Source: Candidatus Gottesmanbacteria bacterium (lineage in GTDB: Bacteria; Patescibacteriota; Microgenomatia; JACPZF01). From it: a DNA stretch of 53,651 nucleotides. Where the stretch lies: contig JACPZF010000015.1 in the NCBI GenBank assembly GCA_016195615.1, forward strand, positions 1 through 53,651. The letters run 5' to 3'. Of this stretch, positions 4,253 through 32,023 are shown one piece after another. The notes beneath the pieces are model-generated. The model saw only the letters and a list, made by a program, of their open reading frames with translations. It made no database searches and had not been told where the DNA came from. The position numbers and the translations under genes were made by a program. Every line of letters begins with the position of its first letter. The stretch's first letter is position 1.

Positions 4253-4645
4253 TCAAAGCGAACTTGTCAGCTTTTTGAAATCTTTATCAAAGCTTAAAAT
4301 CTCAGCATTTCTACTTACTGCCTGACAAAAAAGAAAAGCATCAACGAGATCGATATTCTCAAGCTGATAAATATCTAAGGCCTCTAAAAGGTTTTCCCTT
4401 TCTTCCACTTCAAAATAGGGAACAGAAACGAGTGTTTTTAGATGATGATAAACTTCTAACCTGGGAAGTTCATAATACTTTTCCAAGGCGAAGCAAATTT
4501 CAAAAATGACAATCTGGCACACAACAATGACGATTTCTTTCTTCCTTGCGCCTATAAAATACTTTTCGGCCTGACTCTTTTGTCTGGTGTTTTCCGGAAG
4601 AATAAAGCGTAAAAAAATGTTGGTATCGGCGAAATAAACCTTCAT
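4253..4645 (-). CDS. vapC: PIN-domain toxin (VapC-like)
   Basis: N-terminal MKVYFADTNIFLRF and C-terminal ILSFDKDF are typical PIN acidic motifs. It overlaps the upstream antitoxin gene by 4 nt. Confidence 0.8.
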   Translation of the reverse strand: MKVYFADTNIFLRFILPENTRQKSQAEKYFIGARKKEIVIVVCQIVIFEICFALEKYYELPRLEVYHHLKTLVSVPYFEVEERENLLEALDIYQLENIDLVDAFLFCQAVSRNAEILSFDKDFKKLTSSL

Positions 4646-4887
4646 ATTAGATGACGGGTAGCAAGATGTTTTTCAAATTGCTCTCTGATTTTTTTGGCGG
4701 AGAATTTTTTCTTAGTCTTAATAACTCCTTTAAGAGATAAAAAATCAGCAACCGGTTCAACAATAATTCTTCCGGCATCTCCGGCCCTAACGATTGCCTT
4801 TTGCACGTTGCCGAAGTTGTACTGATTAAGCAGTTTTTTAGGAATGCTTATTTGTCCTTGAGAAGTAATCGATACTAAATAATTCAT
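4642..4887 (-). CDS. vapB: AbrB/SpoVT-type antitoxin (VapB-like)
   Basis: ITSQGQISIPKKL is an AbrB/MazE looped-hinge-helix signature. The gene is 81 aa and translationally coupled to the PIN gene. Confidence 0.75.
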   Translation of the reverse strand: MNYLVSITSQGQISIPKKLLNQYNFGNVQKAIVRAGDAGRIIVEPVADFLSLKGVIKTKKKFSAKKIREQFEKHLATRHLI

Positions 4888-4896
4888 AGTACATTA

Positions 4897-4925
4897 AAAA
4901 TAGCAGTTTGCATTACTTTTGTCAA
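4897..4925 (-). promoter_or_regulatory. sigma70-like promoter of the vapBC pair
   Basis: Minus strand TTGACA (rc 4920-4925), a 17-nt spacer and TATTTT (rc 4897-4902), 9 nt before the ATG at 4887. Confidence 0.5.
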
Positions 4926-4931
4926 GTTCCA

Positions 4932-5657
4932 TTATTTTGCTTTTGTGGGCGTTGGGGTTAGAGATGGAGTAGGAGATGGTGCTTCGGCAAGAATTAAAAT
5001 GCGGCCGGCGGGAAGCAGTTCTTTTCCTTCTTTGGTGACGGTGAGAAAACCATAAACATAAACCAATTGGCCGGCGCTGAATTTGGAGAAGCCGCTTCTG
5101 GTTAATCCTTTTGCTTGATTATAGAGAGAAGTTCTGGTGGTTTGATCAATATCCACGAGATAGTCTTTACTGGAGCTGGAAACCGTGATTTGAAAGTTTT
5201 TTTTGTCGACGTTTTTGATTTTGCCTATTAGGCCCAAGGGAAGCTTCATGGCAACCACCGCTTTGGCTGTCAGAGTATTAGTTGTTGCGTTAAAAGTGCC
5301 CCAAATATAGACCGTTTGACCCAACTTCAAATCGTCGAGCTGAATTTTAGTTTTTTGGAAATCAGAATCAATTTGAGAAAGAGCAGTATTGTCATCTAGA
5401 CTAGCGGTAACTTCATTAGCGCCGGCGCTAAAAATAATTTTTTGGTCAGAGAGAGTTTTAATTTCACCTTTAAAAACCCTCTGGGAGAGGACGTTTAGCT
5501 CGGCGACGCGGGAAGCGAGTTTTTCTTTAAGCTCTTTTATTTTAAGATTAGACGAAGGTGTGGGCGTCATTTCAGCCGCAAAAATACCAGATGTTATGGC
5601 GACAAAAAAAATAAAGATCGTTGATAGTAAAATCGTTTTATTTGGTTTCATAAACAA
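4932..5657 (-). CDS. secreted/membrane-anchored hypothetical protein
   Basis: N-terminal hydrophobic segment (ILLSTIFIFFVAITSGIFA) and a Pro/Thr/Ser-rich C-terminus. No family recognised. Confidence 0.6.
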   Translation of the reverse strand: MFMKPNKTILLSTIFIFFVAITSGIFAAEMTPTPSSNLKIKELKEKLASRVAELNVLSQRVFKGEIKTLSDQKIIFSAGANEVTASLDDNTALSQIDSDFQKTKIQLDDLKLGQTVYIWGTFNATTNTLTAKAVVAMKLPLGLIGKIKNVDKKNFQITVSSSSKDYLVDIDQTTRTSLYNQAKGLTRSGFSKFSAGQLVYVYGFLTVTKEGKELLPAGRILILAEAPSPTPSLTPTPTKAK

Positions 5658-13754: not shown

Positions 13755-15485
13755 ATGCAGGATTTTAATCTTTTACGCGATCTCTTAGTCATTTTAATTA
13801 CCGCTTTTGTTTTTGGGCTTTTAGCTAAGCGCCTCAAACAACCGCCTATCACTGGTTATGTCATAGGCGGCGCGCTCATTTCCACTTTCGGAACCAAGTT
13901 GGCGGCCCCAGTCTCGACAACCACCCTGATTGATTTTGGCGTTATTCTTTTAATGTTTACTCTCGGAATTGAGTTTTCTTTCCGCCGGATTTTGCGAGTC
14001 AAAGAGGTCATCTTTTGGGGGGGCATAGTTCAGATTGCGGTTTTTAGTTTGATTTTAAGCGGTTTATTTATCGTCTTTTTAAACTTCCTGCCTTATCAGT
14101 CAATCTATCTGGCTTTGGCTTTGTCCCTTTCGTCTACCGCCATCGTCGCCAAACTGCTTTTTGACCGCGGCGAGATCGACACGCTTTACGGCGAAATTTT
14201 AACGGGGTGGCTGCTGATTCAAGATTTAGCCGTAATTCCTATCTGGGTAGTCATGCCCGTGATTTGGAATAATCTGCATAGCGCTAGTTTTTCTCTCAGT
14301 ACTATTCTTACCTCGCTGGCTTTGGCGCTTCTTAAAACCGGCGCCATTTTATATTTTCTCTATTGGTTGGGTAAAAAAGTCGTGCCTTCATATTTAAACA
14401 AAATTGCCAAGATTAACTCCCGCGAGCTTTTTTTAATCGGCGTGGTTTTGCTGATCTCTTTTCTAGGTATTGCGGCTTCAAGCTTAGGTTTATCACCGGC
14501 AATCGGAGCATTTGTCGCCGGCCTTTTGATTTCGGAAACTTCCCAAAACCATGCCATTTTTGCTGAAATTCGGCCGATTAGAGATATTTTAAGCATCATT
14601 TTTTTTGTTTCCTTGGGACTTTTATTTAATCTCCATTTTCTTCTTCTTAATTTTGGTTTGATTGTCGGCTTAACCATTTTAGTAGTCATTCTTAAACTTT
14701 TAATTTCCGCGCTGATCATGATTTACTTTGGGTTTCACAGCAAAACCGTTTTTTTAACTTCTGTGGGTATTATCAGCGTTGGCGAATTTGCTTTTGTTTT
14801 GGCGCGAGTTGGGGTTGACCGCGGCTATTTAGACGCTTCTTCTTATAATCTTTTATTGTCGATAACCGTTTTAACGATGATTATTGCACCTTGGGCGATT
14901 TCGCTAAGCGCAAATTCTTATCCGGTGGTGAAAAATTTTGTCCATAAGTTTTCTCCTCTTCTTTACGAAAAATTTTTTACGAAAATTGATCAGAATAAAA
15001 ATTTTGACGAAGAACTGCCGTTTACCGACCACGTGGTTATCTGCGGCCATGGTAGAGTAGGAAAGCACATCAGCCAAATTCTGGAACTTGCCAAGATTCC
15101 TTATGTCGTGATCGATTTTAATCAAAAAGTGATAAGCGATCTCAAAAAACACGCTGTTTTCGCGATCTACGGCGATCCTTCGGATCTGGATGTCTTAAAC
15201 TTTGCCAAGGTGGACTTTGCCAAAGTGGTAGTCGTCGCTGTTCCCGATAGACACAGCCAGGAGATGATTATTCAAAACAGCCTGACGTTAAATCGAAATA
15301 TCGTCATTATTTGCCGGTCTCATTTTGACGAAGATAGAGAGCGTTTATACGCTCTGGGGGCGCAAGCGATTGTTCAACCAGAATTTGAAGCCGCCTTACA
15401 TATCTCCGGAGTGCTTCTTAATGTTTATAAATTCCCCCGCGAGGAAATTTTTGAGTTTTTAAACAAAATCCGAAAGTCAGCCTAG
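13755..15485 (+). CDS. CPA2-family cation:proton antiporter with C-terminal RCK/TrkA-N domain (KefB/C-like)
   Basis: About 12 TM segments followed by a Rossmann-type VVICGHGRVGKHISQIL motif. Confidence 0.85.
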   Translation: MQDFNLLRDLLVILITAFVFGLLAKRLKQPPITGYVIGGALISTFGTKLAAPVSTTTLIDFGVILLMFTLGIEFSFRRILRVKEVIFWGGIVQIAVFSLILSGLFIVFLNFLPYQSIYLALALSLSSTAIVAKLLFDRGEIDTLYGEILTGWLLIQDLAVIPIWVVMPVIWNNLHSASFSLSTILTSLALALLKTGAILYFLYWLGKKVVPSYLNKIAKINSRELFLIGVVLLISFLGIAASSLGLSPAIGAFVAGLLISETSQNHAIFAEIRPIRDILSIIFFVSLGLLFNLHFLLLNFGLIVGLTILVVILKLLISALIMIYFGFHSKTVFLTSVGIISVGEFAFVLARVGVDRGYLDASSYNLLLSITVLTMIIAPWAISLSANSYPVVKNFVHKFSPLLYEKFFTKIDQNKNFDEELPFTDHVVICGHGRVGKHISQILELAKIPYVVIDFNQKVISDLKKHAVFAIYGDPSDLDVLNFAKVDFAKVVVVAVPDRHSQEMIIQNSLTLNRNIVIICRSHFDEDRERLYALGAQAIVQPEFEAALHISGVLLNVYKFPREEIFEFLNKIRKSA

Positions 15486-17224: not shown

Positions 17225-17494
17225 TTAACCTTGAGCAACAGTAACCTGACCTAGCCACATAGGAAATGTTGGGCTATCTTTTATTACATTATTCGCCATA
17301 TTATTTACTAATCCGTCTTTATCCGAAGCCACGCATACAAATATCTCACCTGTATGTTTTCTTAATTCTTCAGCGGCTTCAGCATTAGAAACCGTAATTT
17401 GTCTTACCAGTGAACCTGAAAAGGTTTGTATATTTCCTTTAATCTTTACTTTTGTTTTTTTGCGTCCTTCCCTAAATTCAATACTAGGCGTCAT
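17225..17494 (-). CDS. hypothetical 89-aa protein
   Basis: ORF downstream of a near-consensus minus-strand promoter. No family recognised and no SD. Confidence 0.4.
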   Translation of the reverse strand: MTPSIEFREGRKKTKVKIKGNIQTFSGSLVRQITVSNAEAAEELRKHTGEIFVCVASDKDGLVNNMANNVIKDSPTFPMWLGQVTVAQG

Positions 17495-17522: not shown

Positions 17523-17554
17523 ATTGTACTTCTTCTTCTTCTTCTTCTTGTCAA
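17523..17554 (-). promoter_or_regulatory. promoter whose spacer is a (CTT)7 trinucleotide repeat
   Basis: Minus strand TTGACA (rc 17549-17554) and TACAAT (rc 17523-17528) are separated by 20 nt made entirely of AAG repeats (plus strand (CTT)7 at 17529-17549). Confidence 0.5.
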
Positions 17555-17602
17555 ATCAAGCCAAAAAGAATCTATCCGAAAAGACAAGATAGAAATTTAA
17601 CT

Positions 17603-17638
17603 TGTCACAAAACACTGCTCGAGCAGTAAGTTGTGACA
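17603..17638. repeat. composite perfect palindrome
   Basis: TGTCACAA..CTGCTCGAGCAG..TTGTGACA: 8-bp outer arms around a 12-bp self-complementary core. Confidence 0.6.
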
Positions 17639-18085
17639 GTTCTGATTAAAGGTATTGGGAAATGATGCAATGTTGCCGCGCCCGTGGAGAAGAAGGTGCT
17701 GAAGGGGTGGCTGGGCTGGTGCCTTAATAGCGTGATAGATAAGAATTAGATCATTAATCCTTGGTAACGCTATGTAATGCTGACCCATTAACACGATATA
17801 TATCTCTATACGATTTACTTTGCCTGTTGTAGAACCATTTTTAGCATTATCAAGAACTATTTCAGTAACTACTTTACTCAGATGTGGATCTAAGTTTTAA
17901 CTGCTTCTTTTACCTGCTCGTCCGTGCCTTCAATTTTAAGATCTACTCCTCCGCAAGGACGAGTTAAGCCAATCTCATGAACAAATACGTTTCCATCTAC
18001 ATGTACACTGCTACCATCAAAAAAATTATATCTGGTGTTATAAATATTATTAAAGGTTAAATGTAAGAAAAAACTATTCTTCTTC

Positions 18086-18115
18086 TTGTCAAATACAACT
18101 GGTTTTATCTATACT
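18086..18115 (+). promoter_or_regulatory. promoter upstream of structured leader and 45-aa ORF
   Basis: TTGTCA (18086-18091), an 18-nt spacer and TATACT (18110-18115). The 16-mer cttcttcttgtcaaat (18079-18094) is identical to 17541-17556. Confidence 0.45.
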
Positions 18116-22687: not shown

Positions 22688-24883
22688 ATGGATATTTCTG
22701 ATGGCATCAGGCGCTTTTTGGAATACTTAGAGATCGAACGCAACTGTTCAACTTTGACCATTCGCGACTATGAGCACTACCTAAACACCTTTGACGACTG
22801 GACGAGGGCAAATAGCCAGGTAGAAAAGGTCGAAGACATTGATGACGAACACATACGTCAATTTCGGCTGTTTCTGGCTCGTAAAGCTGACAAGCACGGC
22901 CGTTTTCTGAAACGAATTACGCAAAATTATTACGTCATTGCCTTAAGAGCTTTTTTAAGATATTTAATCAAGCAAGACGTCAAAACATTAGCACCGGAAA
23001 AAATTGATTTACCCAAAACCGAAAGCCGGTCGTTAAAATTTTTAAACGAAGAACAGCTTCATCGTTTACTTACGGCAATTGATATTTCCACCAACTGGGG
23101 TTTAAGAGACAGGACAATGGTCGAAATGCTGTTTTCAACGGGCCTGCGGGTTTCAGAACTGTGTAAGCTTAACCGAAACCAGATAAATTTAGATTCTAGG
23201 GAAATTGGGGTTATTGGTAAAGGTCAAAGGGCCCGCGTGGTATTTTTGTCTGATCAGGCGGTGTTTTGGCTAAATAAGTACTTGGCAAAACGAACCGATG
23301 ATTTCTTCCCTTTATTTATAAGGTATAGTCAAAAAGTTGACGAGACTCCCCATGGCGAGAAAATGAGGTTGACGGCCCGAAGCGTGCAAAGAATGCTGGA
23401 AAAATATGTTTTGAAATCCCGCTTGCCAGTTAAGGCAACGCCGCATACATTGAGACATTGTTTAGAACCAAATACCAGAGTGTTTACCAAAGAGGTTGGT
23501 ATGGTATCTGCCAATGATTTATTTTTTTCTGAAAGTGCAAAAATCGAAGGTGTTAATTTAAAAAACGGAAATCAACAATCAGCAGAAATCACCAAAAAAT
23601 TAAGCCATATATCAGATTTGTATTCTGTTTGGGCCGATGGATACGAGATCGTATGTTCCGGAAAGCACTGGCTTTTTACAGTTGGATTGAACGGGCCCGA
23701 GGAAATATTGGTAAATAATTTAAAGTTAGGAGATTATATTTTAGGTGTTAACAAGGTGAATATTGTTGGTAAAACGTTTGTTGACATAGATATGGCAAGG
23801 TTAATTGGATATATTCTCGGCGACGGTGTTATCAGTGAAAAAAGACGCGGCGTTTTTATATTTGATAAAGATATAGATAACTTAAAATTTTATCAAAAGA
23901 TAATTCTCGATAAGCTGCAGGGTTTTATAACAGTTGCAAAAGCTAAAATCAGCAATAGTTATGTGCTTACTTATTATTCATTACCGTTTGTAAAATTTCT
24001 TATATCGCTTGGTTTGGATAAAAAAGCAAAAGAAAAACGGGTACCGTCCAAAATAGTTAATTCTTCAAATCAAGAAATCGCCTCTTTTTTATCAGGTTTT
24101 TATGATGCAGAGGGCAATTCAACTGGTTCTCCTAGATTTTTTTCATCCTCTAAACATCTTCTCAAAGATGTCCAGATGATGTTATTACGGTTAGGGATAG
24201 ATGCTCATTTAATGGAGCGAAAGAGAACTGTCACACTTCCGTCCGGCAGGCCCTATATCCATTTATTCTATACGCTACAAGTCCTGTCTTTTAATGATCA
24301 AAAGAGATTTATTAAACTAATTCCTACATTAAAAATAAAAACTTTAAAGGTATTTGGTAAGCGCGATTTTGATAAATTACCGGTAAACTTGCTATTAAAA
24401 GAAATTTACGAAGATTTGGAAAAAAACGGGAAAAAAGGTTTTCGTTATGCCTTGCAAATAAATGAAGGGATAAAATCTCCCAGATATTTTAAAGAAATGA
24501 CTCCCCTACGCTCAACCGTTGGAAAATTTATCCGCCAGATAGAGAAATTTAAGTTTAATTCAAAAACTTTTGAAAATTTAAAAATGTTTTATAAATCTCA
24601 AAATATGAAATGGTTAGAGGTGAAAAAGATAATAAGGTGGCCATCGCCACGAAACAGCGTGTTTGATTTCACTGTTTCTGAAATTAGTAATTTAATTACA
24701 GACGGAATTGTCAGTCACAATTCGTTTGCGACTGATCTTTTAATGAAAGGCGCTGATTTACGCAGCGTCCAAGAAATGCTAGGACATAAAAACGTTGGCA
24801 CCACCCAAATCTATACCCACGTCACCAATCCGCAGTTAAAAGAGGTTCATAAGAGATTTCACAGCGGGAACAAAAACAGATAA
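22688..24883 (+). CDS. xerC: XerC/XerD-type tyrosine recombinase interrupted by an intein
   Basis: SD aaggag. N-terminal SAM-like domain ([19 protein letters not shown]), catalytic Arg in TGLRVSEL, then HTLRH|intein|[34 protein letters not shown]. The exteins total 310 aa. Confidence 0.9.
23459..24721 (+). mobile_element. 421-aa intein with LAGLIDADG homing endonuclease
   Basis: Starts with Cys (CLEPNTRVF) and has block B GKHWLFT. LAGLIDADG motifs are [11 protein letters not shown] and [11 protein letters not shown]. It ends ..GIVSHN, followed by the +1 Ser of the C-extein. Confidence 0.85.
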
Positions 24884-24891
24884 AAACGATA

Positions 24892-25802
24892 TTATACTTG
24901 CTGATGAGAAACAGAAATCGGGGTTCTGCCAAAACTTTGAGCAATTCTAAAGGTGAATCCGCTTAACGGTACCGCGAGGACGTTCATTAATGGTTCCCAC
25001 ACAGCCGTATTTAGGGTTTCATCGACTCTATTCCAGGCATCCAGTACTTTTATTTTTAATTCGTGATTTCCACTGCTAAACTTTAGATAATGTTTTAACA
25101 AATCCTGCGTAGCTGACCAACCGCAGCCTAACCCATGAGGTTGCTGGTTTTCTCTTAATGGTGCTTGCTTACCAAGATAGACCTCAGCGCCGGTTTTCAA
25201 GGCGGAAAATTGAGTAATTAAAGCAGAGATGATGGTCGTAGGGACTGTTTTACCGATAAAATATCCGGAAAGAAAATCAGTGGCCACATTGGCTGGCAGA
25301 CCAAAATAGATACCGGCGGCGATTAACTGATTTCCGATAAATGCTCCTCCGTTTAAACCGGCACCGGGTTCTACTCTTTGCTGCAATTCCTCCGCTATTC
25401 GTGGATCAACACATTTTCGATCGATTTCACGTGCCCCATCTGGGGCCATCACATATTGTCCTGACCCATGGAGACGAATTTTTTTTACATCGAGGTGGAT
25501 AAGCGTATCTGCCGCGAGGATGATATTTTGCGCAACACCTGTGACAAAGCCCAATCCCATCGCCGCGGGTCTTAGTGCTTCCGGATTGCTGATAAATTTA
25601 GGTAGATCTTTTAAGGCCTCAGAGGCTAATTGTAATTGTGTTAATGAGAGAGAGAGAGAGAGAGATAAGGCTCTGCCAGGCCCAATTGTTTAGCCACTAT
25701 TAGTGCGGCACCCACTACTGCAGTTTCGCCCAGCCAAATAGCTATATCTTTTAAAGGCAATGTTTTTCCATTTCTTGGTTCAATTTCCGAACGCATACGC
25801 AT
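24892..25802 (-). pseudogene. hypothetical ~300-aa gene interrupted by a (TC)10 dinucleotide tract (phase-variable candidate)
   Basis: ATG 25802 opens a 53-aa frame (MRMRSEIEPRNGK..AEPYLSLSLSH-stop) that ends just after the repeat. The 222-aa track ORF frame is open from 25689 through the repeat. Loss of one TC unit, or gain of two, joins the two frames. Confidence 0.55.
25646..25665. repeat. (GA)10 / (TC)10 simple sequence repeat
   Basis: Counted directly: 20 nt of perfect GA dinucleotides. Confidence 0.95.
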
Positions 25803-25813
25803 ATAAGAAAAGA

Positions 25814-25842
25814 ATGCTACTATTTTTATTAGAAAATGTCAA
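25814..25842 (-). promoter_or_regulatory. promoter of the repeat-interrupted gene
   Basis: Minus strand TTGACA (rc 25837-25842), a 17-nt spacer and TAGCAT (rc 25814-25819), 11 nt before ATG 25802. Confidence 0.5.
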
Positions 25843-25855
25843 TCCAACGCTGTAA

Positions 25856-26425
25856 TCACCACTGTTGTAGGGGAAAAGATTTTAACGTTTTAAGAAATCT
25901 TGTCAATTTTAGCTTTTTTGCCCAAAGAAAAAGATATTTTTGATCAAGATTTTTTTGAATTTGGAAAACCGAAGCGGCATCTTCTAAATGGCGATCGCTA
26001 TGAGATTTTTTATACCAATCAAGCTTAATGAGTATTAAATCCTCCGGGGAAATAAAATAAATTTTTTTTCCTGCAATCGTCTGTTTTATTTTTCTTTGGA
26101 AGCAAATTTTGTCTAAAGGTCTATTTATACCAAACCACAAATCAATCTTGAGGTTTTCTGGCAGGTAAAAGATGTTATGCTGATAATTTTCGGCTGCGGC
26201 TTGTAGCAACGACTCTTTGTCAAAAGAAAAATCGTTAGGCAGATCGTTTAAGAACGAACTAAAATTATCTTTTTTTTGTGGAATTACCACGACCTTAAAG
26301 TCAAAATCATGACTCGAACGCGGTCTGCCATAAACTGAAATCGCCAGCGATCCAGTTACGAAATAATCGATACCCTGTTTTTCTAACAGTCTACCTATAG
26401 TTAAAAGAACGTCTTGGTATTCCAT
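25856..26425 (-). CDS. nucleotidyltransferase-fold protein (MNT/AbiEii-like)
   Basis: N-terminal ..IDYFVTGSLAISVYGRPRSSHDFDF.. matches the GS..(x)n..D.D minimal nucleotidyltransferase signature. Confidence 0.55.
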   Translation of the reverse strand: MEYQDVLLTIGRLLEKQGIDYFVTGSLAISVYGRPRSSHDFDFKVVVIPQKKDNFSSFLNDLPNDFSFDKESLLQAAAENYQHNIFYLPENLKIDLWFGINRPLDKICFQRKIKQTIAGKKIYFISPEDLILIKLDWYKKSHSDRHLEDAASVFQIQKNLDQKYLFLWAKKLKLTRFLKTLKSFPLQQW

Positions 26426-26617: not shown

Positions 26618-27401
26618 ATCCGATTCCGGATCGGATTATATTAGCGATCCGGTAATTATTCGATAATTAAATGTTTTATTTTAGCTAAATCTCGTTGGTA
26701 ATCTTTTCTGGCCATTACAAATTTTTCGTAATCTTTTATCGAGCGAAATTGATCTAAAATTATTGATGGATAAACAAAGTCTAATTTTTCTAAACCAATA
26801 TAGTGTTTGTACGACGAATATGAATAATCTTCAGGTTTATCCACCAAATATGCGGTCACAGGATTTAAATGAATATATCTTGACAAGTGTAAAATTTGTT
26901 CGTCGGTTTCAACATGAACCGCTTCAAAATTTGGTTCAAAAAGTGGACCAGAAGTTTCGTGTTTAATATTAAAATAATGGGCATAGCTATTGGATATTTT
27001 ATGTAGAAACTTATAAATGCCAAAATCTTCAGTTTGTTGCAGAGTGAAATGAAAATGCGTTGGCATTATACAAAAATTTATTATTTTAACTAAACAGTAA
27101 CTAAAGTTTAATAAGTACTTGCTTCTGCATTTACGATAATTTGAAAACTTCGTCGCTGGTTTACTTTGAAGATAATATCTTGAAGATTCTAAAAAAAGAC
27201 TGGTTTCCTTTTCCCGATTAAATACAGGACGCTTATAGATCGATCGGTTAAAAACGTGATAGTATTCACCGGTAACAAATTGTATTTTTCTCAGACTCAC
27301 ATATCTAACATAACTCGATAAATATGATTCGTCAATATGGCAATATGTAAGTTTTAGAGGAAATACCCGGTTCGCGAAGCTATTCCGATCCCGGATCGGA
27401 A
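26618..27401 (-). mobile_element. IS200/IS605-family element (Y1 transposase flanked by matching subterminal hairpins)
   Basis: Hairpins ATCCGAT-tccgg-ATCGGAT (26618-26636) and TTCCGAT-cccgg-ATCGGAA (27383-27401) bracket the transposase ORF. The 784-nt span fits IS200-type size. Confidence 0.6.
26656..27300 (-). CDS. tnpA: IS200-like / REP-associated (RAYT-like) HUH tyrosine transposase
   Basis: YYHVFNRS.., the HUH motif MPTHFHF and the catalytic-Tyr region LSRYIHLNPV. Probable GTG start at 27300. The track N-terminal extension to 27483 runs through the left-end hairpin. Confidence 0.7.
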   Translation of the reverse strand: MSLRKIQFVTGEYYHVFNRSIYKRPVFNREKETSLFLESSRYYLQSKPATKFSNYRKCRSKYLLNFSYCLVKIINFCIMPTHFHFTLQQTEDFGIYKFLHKISNSYAHYFNIKHETSGPLFEPNFEAVHVETDEQILHLSRYIHLNPVTAYLVDKPEDYSYSSYKHYIGLEKLDFVYPSIILDQFRSIKDYEKFVMARKDYQRDLAKIKHLIIE

Positions 27402-27415
27402 GAAGATACTTAATT

Positions 27416-27718
27416 TTAATTATCAACAAATAATCTTGCATGTACTGGAAAATCAATTCTTGCCTGTTCCTTAAGTTGATCAACTAGATCCCAATTTCTC
27501 TCATTGGCAGCTGCTTTCATTTTGGTTCTCCATCCAGCCCAAGGATTATCATCGGTATAATTATCTATAAGTGCTTGACCATGACCATCGTCTTTATATT
27601 GTTTTCTTAATGATTTCACGAGTCTATTTCTTGCTTCTGGTCCCCCCGGATATCCAATTTCGGAAGCGTTTAAGGCCAAAATTGGCCTGTATTTTTCTTT
27701 AGCTAATTTTTCCGACAT
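27416..27718 (-). CDS. hypothetical 100-aa protein
   Basis: ORF directly downstream of gyrA. Its last codons abut or overlap the IS end, so the C-terminus may be altered by the insertion. Confidence 0.4.
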   Translation of the reverse strand: MSEKLAKEKYRPILALNASEIGYPGGPEARNRLVKSLRKQYKDDGHGQALIDNYTDDNPWAGWRTKMKAAANERNWDLVDQLKEQARIDFPVHARLFVDN

Positions 27719-27748: not shown

Positions 27749-30142
27749 TTACTCTTTCTCCAAACACGCAACGGCGGCGACGAAGTCGGACTTATCCGAT
27801 AACCTCATGAGGATCACACCCTGGGTAGCTCTACCCAGCCGGGGAACAGAATCGATTGGGACTTTAATCGTCTGTTTGCCCGATTTAGTTGCTAAAACAA
27901 GCTGACCAATCGTTTCTGACACCATTTGCGCGGTGACAATCGGGCCGGTTTTGGCAGTGACATTAGCCACTTTTACGCCCTGTCCGCCCCGTCTTTGCTT
28001 GGGAAAGGAAGTAACCGGAGTTCTCTTCCCTATTCCTCTTTCCGATACCACCAGAATATCGCGGAAAAATTTTAATCTTTTATCGCTCGGGTGTTCAATT
28101 TTTTGGGGTACACTTTCCATACCAACCACCAAATCATCCTTTTTCATTCGTACGCCGCGGACGCCGATGGTATCTCTACCGGTGGATCTTACTTCTTTTT
28201 CGGAAAATCGGATGGATTTGCCTTGATGGGTAAAAAGCATGATATCTTCATCGCCGGAGGTTATTTTTGCCCAAACCAGCTCATCGCCGGTTTCTAACTT
28301 TATTGCCGTTAGGCCATTTTTTCGGATATTCTCATATTGACTAAGAGTGGTCTTTTTAACCGTTCCCTGTCTTGTAGTCAGAAAAATACACTCACTATGG
28401 GTTTTATCGGCTTCACTGCTATAGGTTAGTAAGGAATTTACTTTTTCATCCTGGGCGATATTAATAAGATTTACCACCGCCTGTCCCTTACTAACTCTTG
28501 AGGACTCTGGGAGATCCCAAACTCTAAGTTGGTAAACTTTTCCTTTATTGGTAAAGAATAAAATATTATCATGGGTGTTGGCACTGACCAGATGATCGAT
28601 TTCATCTTCCTCCTTTGTAATCATTCCGGTGACTCCTTTTCCTCCCCTGGCTTGGGCGCGGTAGGAGGAGGGCGAAAGGCGTTTGACATAACCAGTTTTG
28701 GTTAAGGTTATAATCATTTTTTCATTCGGGATTAAGTCCTCATCGGAAAACTCGCCGACTTTGCTTTTAATAACTTTAGTTTTTCTATCGTCGCCGTATT
28801 TTTCTTTAAGCTGGAGGATTTCCTCTTTTATTACTTTTAAAACTTTTTCCCCGTGCGAAAGCAGATCCTCAAGATAGGCAATCGTTTCCATCACCATCGC
28901 CAGTTCGTCTTCGATTTTTTGCCGCTCCAGAGCCGCCAGCCTTCTTAGCTGCATATCCAAAATGGCAATCGCTTGGATTTCAGTCAGACCAAACTTGGTC
29001 ATTAAGTTCTTTTTGGCTTCGTCGGCGTCTTGGGATTTTTTAATCGTTTGAATAACCTCGTCGATGTGGTCAACCGCTATTTTTAAACCCTCCAAAATAT
29101 GAGCTCGAGCCTTGGCCTGTTTGAGTTCGAACTCGCTTCTTTTAGTAACCACTCTTTGGCGGTGCCTGATGTATTCTTCCAGGATGGTTTTGAGAGTTAA
29201 GGTTTGCGGCGTTCCATCGACGAGAGCTACCATGTTTACGGGAAAGACGCTTTGCAGACTGGTATGCTTATATAAATTATTTAATACCTGTTTGGGCCGA
29301 GCATCTCTTTTAAGTTCAATTACAACTCTGATGCCGTGACGGTCGGATTCATCGCGAAGATCAGATATGCCTTCTAACTTTTTATCCTTAACTAAATCGG
29401 CAATTCTTTCGACCATCTGGGCCTTATTCACCTGATAAGGAAGCTCGGTAATAATAATGGCGGATTTGTTGCCACCCGCTATGTCTTCAATTTCAGCTCT
29501 ACCCCTCATGACCACTTTGCCCTTACCCGTCGAATAGGCATTGGCGATTTCAGCTTTATCAAAAATAATGCCGGCCGTGGGAAAATCCGGGCCGTGGACA
29601 TACTCCATGAGTTCCTCGGTGGTAACAGAAGATAGATTTTTGTTATCTACCTTCAATTCGTGTTCAACTTTATCGATTATGAACACAATAGCATCAATAA
29701 GTTCTGCCAGATTATGGGGCGGAATCTTAGTTGCCATGCCCACGGCGATACCTTCGGAACCTATGAGAAGCAAATTAGGAAGCTTGGCCGGCAGATAGAC
29801 TGGTTCTTTTAAGGTGTTATCAAAATTAGGAGTAAAATCAACCGTTTCTTTTTCCAGATCGAATAACATTTCCGCGGCAATTAACGCGTCATAAACCGGA
29901 ATATCGCCATGGGGGTGGTATTTACCTAAAACTTCACCGACAATTTTAGCGCTTTTGGAAAATTTAGAAGTATGATGCAGGCCCATTTCGTGCATGGCAT
30001 AGAGAATGCGTCTGTGAACTGGTTTTAAACCGTCCTTAACGTCTGGCAAAGCCCGAGCCACAATAACGCTCATCGCATAGTCCAAATAGGACTTTTGCAT
30101 TTCTTCGGTAATTTCTACTGGTAGAAGTTTGCCAATGTTCAT
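27749..30142 (-). CDS. gyrA: DNA gyrase subunit A (ORF lacks the catalytic-tyrosine block)
   Basis: [60 protein letters not shown] and C-terminal beta-pinwheel repeats are present. The segment VRMAQ..GNFGS..AAMRYTE is absent (see findings). Confidence 0.85.
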
Positions 30143-30178: not shown

Positions 30179-32023
30179 TCATTTTCCAATGACGGCGATG
30201 ACAAAAGGCGCGATTAAAAGAGCAACGATTTGCACGATTTTCATCATCGGATTAAGAGCCGGACCGGCAGTATCTTTTAACGGGTCGCCAACGGTATCAC
30301 CGACGACTGCTGCTTTGTGAGTATCGCTGCCTTTGCCGCCATAGTTGCCATCCTCGATGTATTTTTTGGCGTTATCCCAGGCTCCTCCTGCCGTACACAT
30401 ATACAAAGCCAGAGCTAATCCTGAAACCACGACGCCGGCGAGGAATCCTCCCAAGCTTTCCGCACCTAAAAATCCGACCAAAACTGGGGCGCCGACGACA
30501 ATTATAGCTGGAATAATAAGTTCTCTTTGGGCGGCTGCGGTAACGATTGCGACCGCTTTAGAATAATCAGGCAGAGTTTTGCCTTCCATAATACCTTTAA
30601 TTTCTTTAAATTGACGTCTCACTTCTTGGACTACTTCAAAAGCAGCCTTGCCCACGGAGCCAATAAGCCTCGAGCCAAATAAATATGGTAGACCAGTTCC
30701 AATTAAAAGGCCGGCAAAAACTTTAGGATTGGCGATGTCAATTGATTTTAAACCCGTGACTTCAAAATAAGTGGCAAAGAGCGAACTAGCAGCCACGGCG
30801 GCGCTACCAACAGCAAATCCTTTGGTTAACGCCTTCGTAGTATTGCCGACAGCGTCCAGGCTTTCCGTAACCGCTGCCGCCTTGCCAGGGACGTTGGCCA
30901 TTTGAACCATGCCTTGGGCGTTATCCGAAATCGGACCGAAAGTATCTAGAGACATAATAATACCTGTCGTTGCCAGCATACCCATACCGGCAAGGGAAAT
31001 TCCATAAAAACCCAAAAACCAATAACCGACAAAGATCGTCGCGGTAACAATTAGGATATTAAAAAAGGTTGCTTCCATGCCAATAGCAATGCCGCTAATG
31101 ATCGTAGTTCCCGCCCCGGTTTTAGACGCGGTGGCAATTTGCATCACGGGCTTTTCTCCGGGTCCGGTGTAATACTTGGTAAGAAATAATATTACCAGCA
31201 TGGAAATAATACCAGCCACAGCGGCAAACCCGGCTCGTGGTTCGTTTAAAAGAAAAATCGCCAGTGCCATAAAAATTACCATCGCCGAAATGGCCGAAAT
31301 AATAAAGCCGCGAATTAAAGGTAAAAGAGGATTCTCTTTTTCGTTTTTTGCTTTAACAAAAAAGGTTCCGAGTATGGAAGTTACAATAGCTGCAGCCCGT
31401 GCTAAAAGGGGAAAAACTACGCCTTTTAAGCCAAACATCGCGCCTCCTAGGATCATGGAAGCTACAACCCGCATAAAAAGGGTTAATAATGCCGCCCCAA
31501 AACCATAACCGACCAAAACGTCAGTCGCGTGCTTCGCGACTAGATCAGCCCCTTGCGCAATATAGGAAAAATAAGCCCACATATAAATAAGGGAAACGCC
31601 GAAAAGTCCAAGACCGACCACAAGCATGCCGTTTACGGTTCCGGCGCCAAAGGCAATTTTAAGAGCAGGATTTAAACCATATTGAGCGTTATTGGCAGTT
31701 CGCACATTGGCGCGGACAGCAATCCACATGCCAAAAAAGCCGATCAAAGCACTACCTACTCCTCCGAGGACAAAAGCAACTGCTGTACCAGTTCCAAGGG
31801 TAAAATTTATTAAAACGCTTAAAACCAGCATGATAGGAATCACGACTCGAAATTGTTTTTTAATATAAGTCATCGCGCCCTCGCGGATTGCTTTGGCAAT
31901 CGCTTGCAATTTCGGACTGCCCTCTTCTTCTTTAAGTACTTGTCTTGTTAAATAATAACCATAGCCGATGGCTAAAAGAGCTGTTAATGGAGCTACAAAT
32001 AGTGCTATAAGTTGAATATCCAT
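30179..32023 (-). CDS. hppA: membrane-bound proton/sodium-translocating pyrophosphatase (ORF lacks the central catalytic acidic-motif block)
   Basis: Polytopic. The conserved C-terminal motifs GPISDNAQG, DAVGNTTKA, GGAWDNAKKY and GDTVGDPLKDT are present. The GGG.YTKAADVGADLVGK..DNVGDNVGD block is absent (see findings). Confidence 0.8.
   Translation of the reverse strand: MDIQLIALFVAPLTALLAIGYGYYLTRQVLKEEEGSPKLQAIAKAIREGAMTYIKKQFRVVIPIMLVLSVLINFTLGTGTAVAFVLGGVGSALIGFFGMWIAVRANVRTANNAQYGLNPALKIAFGAGTVNGMLVVGLGLFGVSLIYMWAYFSYIAQGADLVAKHATDVLVGYGFGAALLTLFMRVVASMILGGAMFGLKGVVFPLLARAAAIVTSILGTFFVKAKNEKENPLLPLIRGFIISAISAMVIFMALAIFLLNEPRAGFAAVAGIISMLVILFLTKYYTGPGEKPVMQIATASKTGAGTTIISGIAIGMEATFFNILIVTATIFVGYWFLGFYGISLAGMGMLATTGIIMSLDTFGPISDNAQGMVQMANVPGKAAAVTESLDAVGNTTKALTKGFAVGSAAVAASSLFATYFEVTGLKSIDIANPKVFAGLLIGTGLPYLFGSRLIGSVGKAAFEVVQEVRRQFKEIKGIMEGKTLPDYSKAVAIVTAAAQRELIIPAIIVVGAPVLVGFLGAESLGGFLAGVVVSGLALALYMCTAGGAWDNAKKYIEDGNYGGKGSDTHKAAVVGDTVGDPLKDTAGPALNPMMKIVQIVALLIAPFVIAVIGK

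Follow-up and report, generated by a model that had tools for sequence, protein, structure and literature searches.

A TC repeat of variable length splits an orphan gene on a Patescibacteria chromosome: a candidate for slipped-strand phase variation

An orphan gene on the chromosome of an uncultured, ultra-small Patescibacteria (CPR) bacterium is split by a (TC)10 tract, and a same-strain assembly carries this tract with one further unit between identical flanks. The gene (24892..25802, minus strand) lies in the 53,651-nucleotide stretch of DNA analysed here (the window), a chromosomal stretch from a bacterium close to Microgenomates. Slipped-strand translational phase variation of an accessory gene, caught in the OFF state, is the best reading of the locus, and we give it about an even chance of being correct.

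The putative slippage site, (TC)10 on the minus strand and (GA)10 on the plus strand, occupies positions 25646..25665, in the minus-strand context ...GCAGAGCCTTA(TC)10ATTAACACAATT.... It runs from the last base of codon 46 (Tyr) through codons 47–52 to the first base of codon 53. The N-terminal fragment, ORF1 (25641..25802, minus strand; 53 aa), includes hydrophobic helix 1 (residues 19–37) and ends in ...AEPYLSLSLSH; its stop codon TAA (25643–25641) is separated from the tract by 2 nt. Open through the tract is the frame of ORF2 (24892..25689, minus strand), the first start of which, ATG 25560, gives a product of 222 aa (24892..25560). A preceding interpretation of this DNA, referred to here as the sequence-only reading, had described a gene split by (GA)10 into a 53-codon frame and a 222-aa ORF open through the repeat, and these coordinates are confirmed. 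It had also expected a continuous protein of about 300 aa at 9 or 12 units, in agreement with the products predicted when the unit number was rebuilt in silico from 3 to 18: 302 aa at 9 units and 304 aa at 12, against 53 aa at 10 and 61 aa at 11. Multiples of three (3, 6, 9, 12 and 15 units) gave one ORF in this series, and tract lengths that are not a multiple of three led to truncation at 49–65 aa. Relative to the ancestral-length 9-unit allele (302 aa), the gene in the window carries a +2-nt frameshift. Outside the tract there is no further stop or frameshift across 900 nt, and the seven residues that are invariant in a 23-member alignment of the family are all retained, all of them in the ORF2 half.

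The tract is an extreme outlier and no chance feature. It is the only dinucleotide run of more than 5 units in the 53.6-kb window, the next longest having 5 units, and the longest such run in 245 kb of other CPR-like loci has 6 units. Under a first-order Markov model, 3e-8 GA/TC runs of 20 nt are expected per window.

Homology searches point to a single gene. With the 9-unit fusion as the query, the window's 222-aa ORF was returned together with four relatives of 286–305 aa at 93–95% query coverage; a profile search added P0006 (275 aa) and a shorter copy, P0007 (193 aa), from a contig of 1.9 kb, and a metagenome scan added an ORF at positions 4263–5165 of locus L003. All seven relatives have one continuous gene, six of them intact (P0002–P0006 and the L003 ORF; 275–305 aa) and P0007 shorter. 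For the five nearest (P0002–P0005 being those named in the alignment), the alignment with the 9-unit fusion runs through the junction without a gap; there, AEPY-LSLSLS-LTQLQLASEALKDLPK of the window faces AEPY-YALAQS-LAGIKAATDALKDLPK of P0002; within the repeat-encoded LSLSLS region, Y46, L49 and S52 are invariant between P0002–P0005 and the fusion. Since the relatives have a single ORF and the junction is ungapped, the comparison supports ORF1 and ORF2 as halves of one gene. At the junction, the DNA of the orthologues is free of the repeat (in L001, for example, the site reads TACTATGCGTTGGCACAATCTCTTGCA). The tract is therefore specific to the window lineage, yet the ancestral length falls exactly at 9 units, so that an in-frame (TC)9 allele probably once worked as a gene.

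The sequence-only reading had set a split gene against two genuinely separate genes. Two such genes, or a product made regardless of tract length (by programmed ribosomal frameshifting, by transcriptional slippage or by a new start of translation at ATG 25560), would be compatible with the invariance of this ATG (M81) among close orthologues, with the presence of every invariant residue in ORF2 alone and with a weak promoter-like site at 25547..25520. That site, however, lies downstream of ATG 25560, and in all orthologues one ORF extends across both halves. There is no evident frameshift-stimulating motif, and neither a Shine–Dalgarno sequence nor an alternative start is found upstream of M81 in frame. 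Transcriptional slippage has, to our knowledge, been described for homopolymer runs and not for dinucleotide runs. Explanations of this kind seem highly improbable.

Upstream of the whole gene is a sigma-70-like promoter, TTGACA-17-TAGCAT (25814..25842, minus strand), 11 nt from the ATG. The sequence-only reading had judged it a good promoter; the consensus match is real (10 of 12 positions), but by itself it carries little weight, because nine promoter-like sites were seen in the surrounding 2 kb of AT-rich DNA where 4.4 are expected. A sigma-70-like promoter with a short leader also precedes four of the five orthologues inspected. None of these five has a Shine–Dalgarno motif, and such motifs are rare throughout the window. 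Given the 11-nt distance, the candidate promoter would produce a nearly leaderless mRNA.

Evidence that the tract varies came from a 61-aa protein, P0032, which falls within the 90% cluster of ORF1, ends in ...PYLSLSLSLINTITISL before its stop and equals the predicted 11-unit product. It is encoded on L087, a 972-nt Logan contig from run SRR12113414 that carries (TC)11; all 970 of 970 flanking bases are identical to the window, and the contig has one extra TC unit. The strain is also represented by three more Logan contigs, drawn from SRR12113414 and its neighbour SRR12113409, which match the window at 4,374 of 4,374 bases and leave the unit count of the TC repeat as the sole difference across 5.3 kb between independent assemblies. 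With 10 versus 11 units between identical flanks, the length of the tract varies against an isogenic background. The two observations come from assemblies, and both alleles are out of frame and hence OFF. The locus had been proposed as a phase-variation candidate: its variation in length is borne out by an independent assembly with 100% identical flanks, but reversible ON/OFF switching is not, both alleles being out of frame. The sequence-only reading had named two findings that together would speak against it, a tract without variation and orthologues with two separate genes; neither was obtained. Neither the ON products (6, 9, 12 or 15 units) nor the other OFF products (7, 8, 13 or 14 units) had an exact match in a collection of 15 billion proteins, and the homology search returned no in-frame allele of the window strain. 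As the strain has been sampled thinly (one NCBI MAG and two runs, amounting to two or three assemblies), the missing ON allele is absence of evidence.

The two lengths could be technical if a single true length, maybe in frame, were reported as 10 or 11 units through PCR stutter, sequencing error or assembler choice. Runs of about 10 dinucleotide units stutter in PCR-amplified libraries, and the Logan contigs of the strain are only about 1–2 kb long, which suggests low coverage. A further reason for caution is found on the MAG contig itself. The gyrA gene (27749–30142, minus strand) has a precise in-frame deletion of 120 nt, with its junction near 29884, which costs the protein 40 aa, among them the catalytic-tyrosine motif (AAMRYTE) that L005, L006, L007 and L010 have. 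Either this essential gene has a real but defective allele or the assembly collapsed here; the deletion matters for the trustworthiness of the contig and could mean assembly problems. Against an artefact, both independent assemblies exceed the in-frame 9 units, and stutter generally favours contraction. Logan drops k-mers seen once, and the 11-unit path would then need at least two concordant reads. The rest of the 5.3 kb also agrees perfectly between the assemblies, and the tract itself is no artefact. A technical origin of the length difference seems unlikely.

Another account of the locus is a recent pseudogene, in which a slip of +1 unit in an accidental repeat knocked the gene out and the tract now drifts without selection. 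Both alleles seen are out of frame, with no ON allele on record, and the gene belongs to a rare, patchy family and sits beside a transposase-like ORF in the variable stretch between gyrA and xerC. A Tajima-type relative-rate test of unique changes in the window lineage and in P0002 gave 26 versus 20 with P0003 as the outgroup (p=0.38), 26 versus 11 with P0004 (p=0.014) and 28 versus 8 with P0005 (p=0.001). This mild, outgroup-dependent acceleration of the protein in the window lineage, seen with two of the three outgroups, is in keeping with a pseudogene; it fits either frequent OFF periods or early decay and relaxed constraint. Set against decay, however, are the absence of a second lesion in 900 nt and the intact family-invariant residues. 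Nine units are, moreover, the exact ancestral length, so the repeat coexisted with a functional frame, and a dinucleotide run of 9 units would already switch at high frequency. The pseudogene and phase variation consequently differ by selection and not by mechanism. We regard the pseudogene as possible, if somewhat doubtful.

Under slipped-strand phase variation, one accessory gene of a CPR chromosome would encode an orphan protein of ~300 aa, with its translation gated by (TC)n at codons 47–53, between two N-terminal hydrophobic helices. Nine units would be the ancestral length and frame, that is, the ON state. Slipped-strand mispairing at replication would gain or lose one unit and move the frame, the OFF frame stopping 2 nt (10 units) or 26 nt (11 units) past the tract; the MAG contig would represent a 10-unit OFF allele and the sister sample an 11-unit OFF allele. 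We infer that the length changes arise in vivo by slippage, that ON alleles (9 or 12 units) are still present in the population and that the switch has been kept because it is useful. A point against a switch is that the product cannot be recognised as a surface protein, an adhesin or a restriction-modification protein.

The surroundings of the gene are those of a chromosome, with dnaB, gyrB, gyrA, a H+-pyrophosphatase, a type IV pilus cluster, argS, tgt and a DUF5656 protein in the window. The window GyrA shares 84% and 77% identity with the GyrA of two MAGs, one of them a Candidatus Microgenomates from groundwater. The split gene occupies a variable stretch that extends from gyrA to a convergent xerC/D. 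Upstream of it is a nucleotidyltransferase-like ORF of 189 aa (25856..26425, minus strand) with sub-threshold Pfam matches, followed by an ORF resembling an IS200/Y1 transposase or a REP-associated tyrosine transposase (26656..27483, minus strand; PF01797, 29 bits against a cut-off of 23); the nucleotidyltransferase gene and IS200-like element placed here by the sequence-only reading are thus both found. At the other edge of the stretch is the convergent gene of a XerC/D-type tyrosine recombinase (22688..24883, plus strand; 731 aa), which is interrupted by a LAGLIDADG homing-endonuclease intein; its orthologue in L007 has 311 aa and no intein. In the closest relative, L005, a 50%-identical nucleotidyltransferase-like homologue directly follows gyrA, and in L007 gyrA and the intein-less xerC flank two different ORFs.

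That the split gene is more GC-rich than its neighbours also holds (44.6% against 31–35%; window 40.2%). The AT-rich outliers, however, are the intein, the nucleotidyltransferase-like ORF and the IS200-like ORF, and since the GC content of the split gene resembles that of the core gene gyrA (43–48%), its higher value is no mark of foreign origin. Elsewhere in the window, overlapping pilin ORFs that seemed frameshifted, a possible sign of poor sequence quality, proved to be start-codon artefacts and not frameshifts. The H+-pyrophosphatase gene (30179–32023, minus strand) aligns with L005 971–2995 in two pieces that overlap at query residues 186–235, which suggests an insertion or duplication in either the window gene or the L005 gene.

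The sequence-only reading had found no recognisable family for the product. This remains true of curated libraries, with no match for the fused protein or its relatives in Pfam, NCBIfam, PHROGs or PADLOC, none for any of 23 family members in Pfam at E<=1 and none for the family in the PDB by sequence profile; a small orphan family does exist, however. When 1.84 billion representatives were searched exhaustively with HMMER, only 25 proteins came up at E<=1e-3; a pattern scan across 185,579 GTDB species genomes yielded no close relative, and JGI metagenomes contributed only two. On homology, the split gene is thus assigned to a rare, patchily distributed orphan family of about 25 representatives. 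The neighbourhoods of family members L001–L003, L085 and L086 are mutually different and give no functional clue. Invariant among 23 members are C130, D132, R134, H222, C226, K240 and D254 in the numbering of the fusion, corresponding to C123, D125, R127, H214, C218, K232 and D246 in P0002.

Structure prediction, which the sequence-only reading had proposed for the fused protein, gave a confident AlphaFold model for P0002, the 69%-identical orthologue (pLDDT of 92.9 and pTM of 0.88 with an alignment of 23 sequences; pLDDT of 39 with 5 sequences). The model is composed of long helices and a small β-sheet. Foldseek searches with it found no match in the PDB (best E of 0.99, TM of 0.19) or in BFVD, and the family may represent an undescribed fold or metal site. 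In the model, the tract maps onto a short helix (P0002 residues 38–48) between two hydrophobic helices; the hydropathy of these two N-terminal helices is borderline for transmembrane spans (KD of 1.75 and 1.57). The invariant CxDxR and HxxxCG motifs each stand just after a predicted β-strand. The zinc site of β-carbonic anhydrases has the form CxDxR ... HxxCG, which these motifs recall, although the spacing between His and Cys differs here. A Pro_CA_2 (PF20393) gene neighbours the family gene in L002 and L003. Membership of the β-carbonic anhydrases (Pro_CA or Pro_CA_2) was rejected on an hhalign probability of 0.3% against the Pro_CA_2 neighbours and the lack of a Pfam, PDB or Foldseek match, and the resemblance serves as a lead and not as an assignment.

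One further long SSR, (CTT)7, is present in the 53.6 kb. The perfect repeat (17529–17549) fills the 20-nt spacer between TTGACA (17554..17549) and TACAAT (17528..17523) on the minus strand, a promoter-like pair that precedes by 28 nt the ATG of an 89-aa orphan ORF (17225–17494, minus strand); six CTT units would give the optimal 17-nt spacer. Promoter spacers are the other classical position for a slippage switch, and the arrangement hints that the (TC)10 locus may not be alone. An 18-nt string from the (CTT)7 region, TTCTTCTTCTTGTCAAAT, is repeated at 18077–18094. No convincing ORF is found in the approximately 1.2 kb that separate tgt from the LytR_C gene. One frame on the minus strand at 17560–18100 reads ...FDGSSVHVDGNVFVHEIGLTRPCGGVDLKIEGTDEQVKEAVKT before a stop but lacks ATG, GTG and TTG as starts; an unusual start codon may be in use, or the frame may be what remains of a gene. 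A G7 homopolymer (14017–14023) inside a Na+/H+ exchanger gene (13755–15485) is unusual at 40% GC, yet short.

Contingency loci that work by strand slippage are characteristic of bacteria with small genomes that depend on a host, among them Haemophilus, Neisseria, Helicobacter, Campylobacter and Mycoplasma. The genomes of CPR bacteria, or Patescibacteria, are small as well, and a life attached to other cells is presumed for them. Full-text literature searches found no report of SSR switches or phase variation in Patescibacteria, CPR or Saccharibacteria; the mechanism is a textbook one, and the host group appears to be new for such loci. A confirmed switch would mean that CPR bacteria produce heritable, reversible heterogeneity, and would single out a protein family that the cell needs only part of the time, an orphan family modelled with confidence but unmatched in the PDB. 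More tentatively, ultra-small environmental CPR or Patescibacteria may, like host-adapted pathogens, run sets of SSR contingency loci, here (TC)n on an orphan, possibly membrane-anchored protein of unmatched fold together with a promoter-spacer (CTT)n on a second orphan gene. Were this so, presumed episymbionts would gain stochastic variation in host- or phage-facing functions, and the CPR would have a first documented case of SSR phase variation.

Among known systems, Haemophilus influenzae and Campylobacter jejuni carry tetranucleotide or poly-G tracts in lic, mod and capsule or flagellar modification genes. The window locus shares with these a hypermutable repeat in an accessory ORF and length polymorphism among otherwise identical genomes. 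It differs in scale, those species having tens of loci with ON and OFF subpopulations shown, against one locus with two OFF alleles here, plus the candidate (CTT)7. The opa genes of Neisseria have CTCTT pentamer repeats in the region coding for the signal peptide. There, as here, a pyrimidine-rich coding repeat gives Leu/Ser-rich hydrophobic residues near the N-terminus, with frame switching by slipped strands; unlike the window gene, opa has a pentamer unit, belongs to a multigene family, has an established function as an outer-membrane adhesin and has had its switching measured experimentally. In Helicobacter pylori, CT repeats in the 5′ coding (signal-peptide) region of oipA (hopH) and of sabA/sabB set the genes ON or OFF. 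Here, by contrast, an environmental CPR bacterium takes the place of a host-adapted pathogen, no surface role is known for the orphan product, and the two alleles known, both OFF, come from assemblies. The H. pylori genes nevertheless resemble the window gene in the CT/TC unit itself, in its early position in the ORF, at or near an N-terminal hydrophobic segment, and in the logic of the switch, whereby the number of units sets the frame and the OFF state truncates the product just past the tract.
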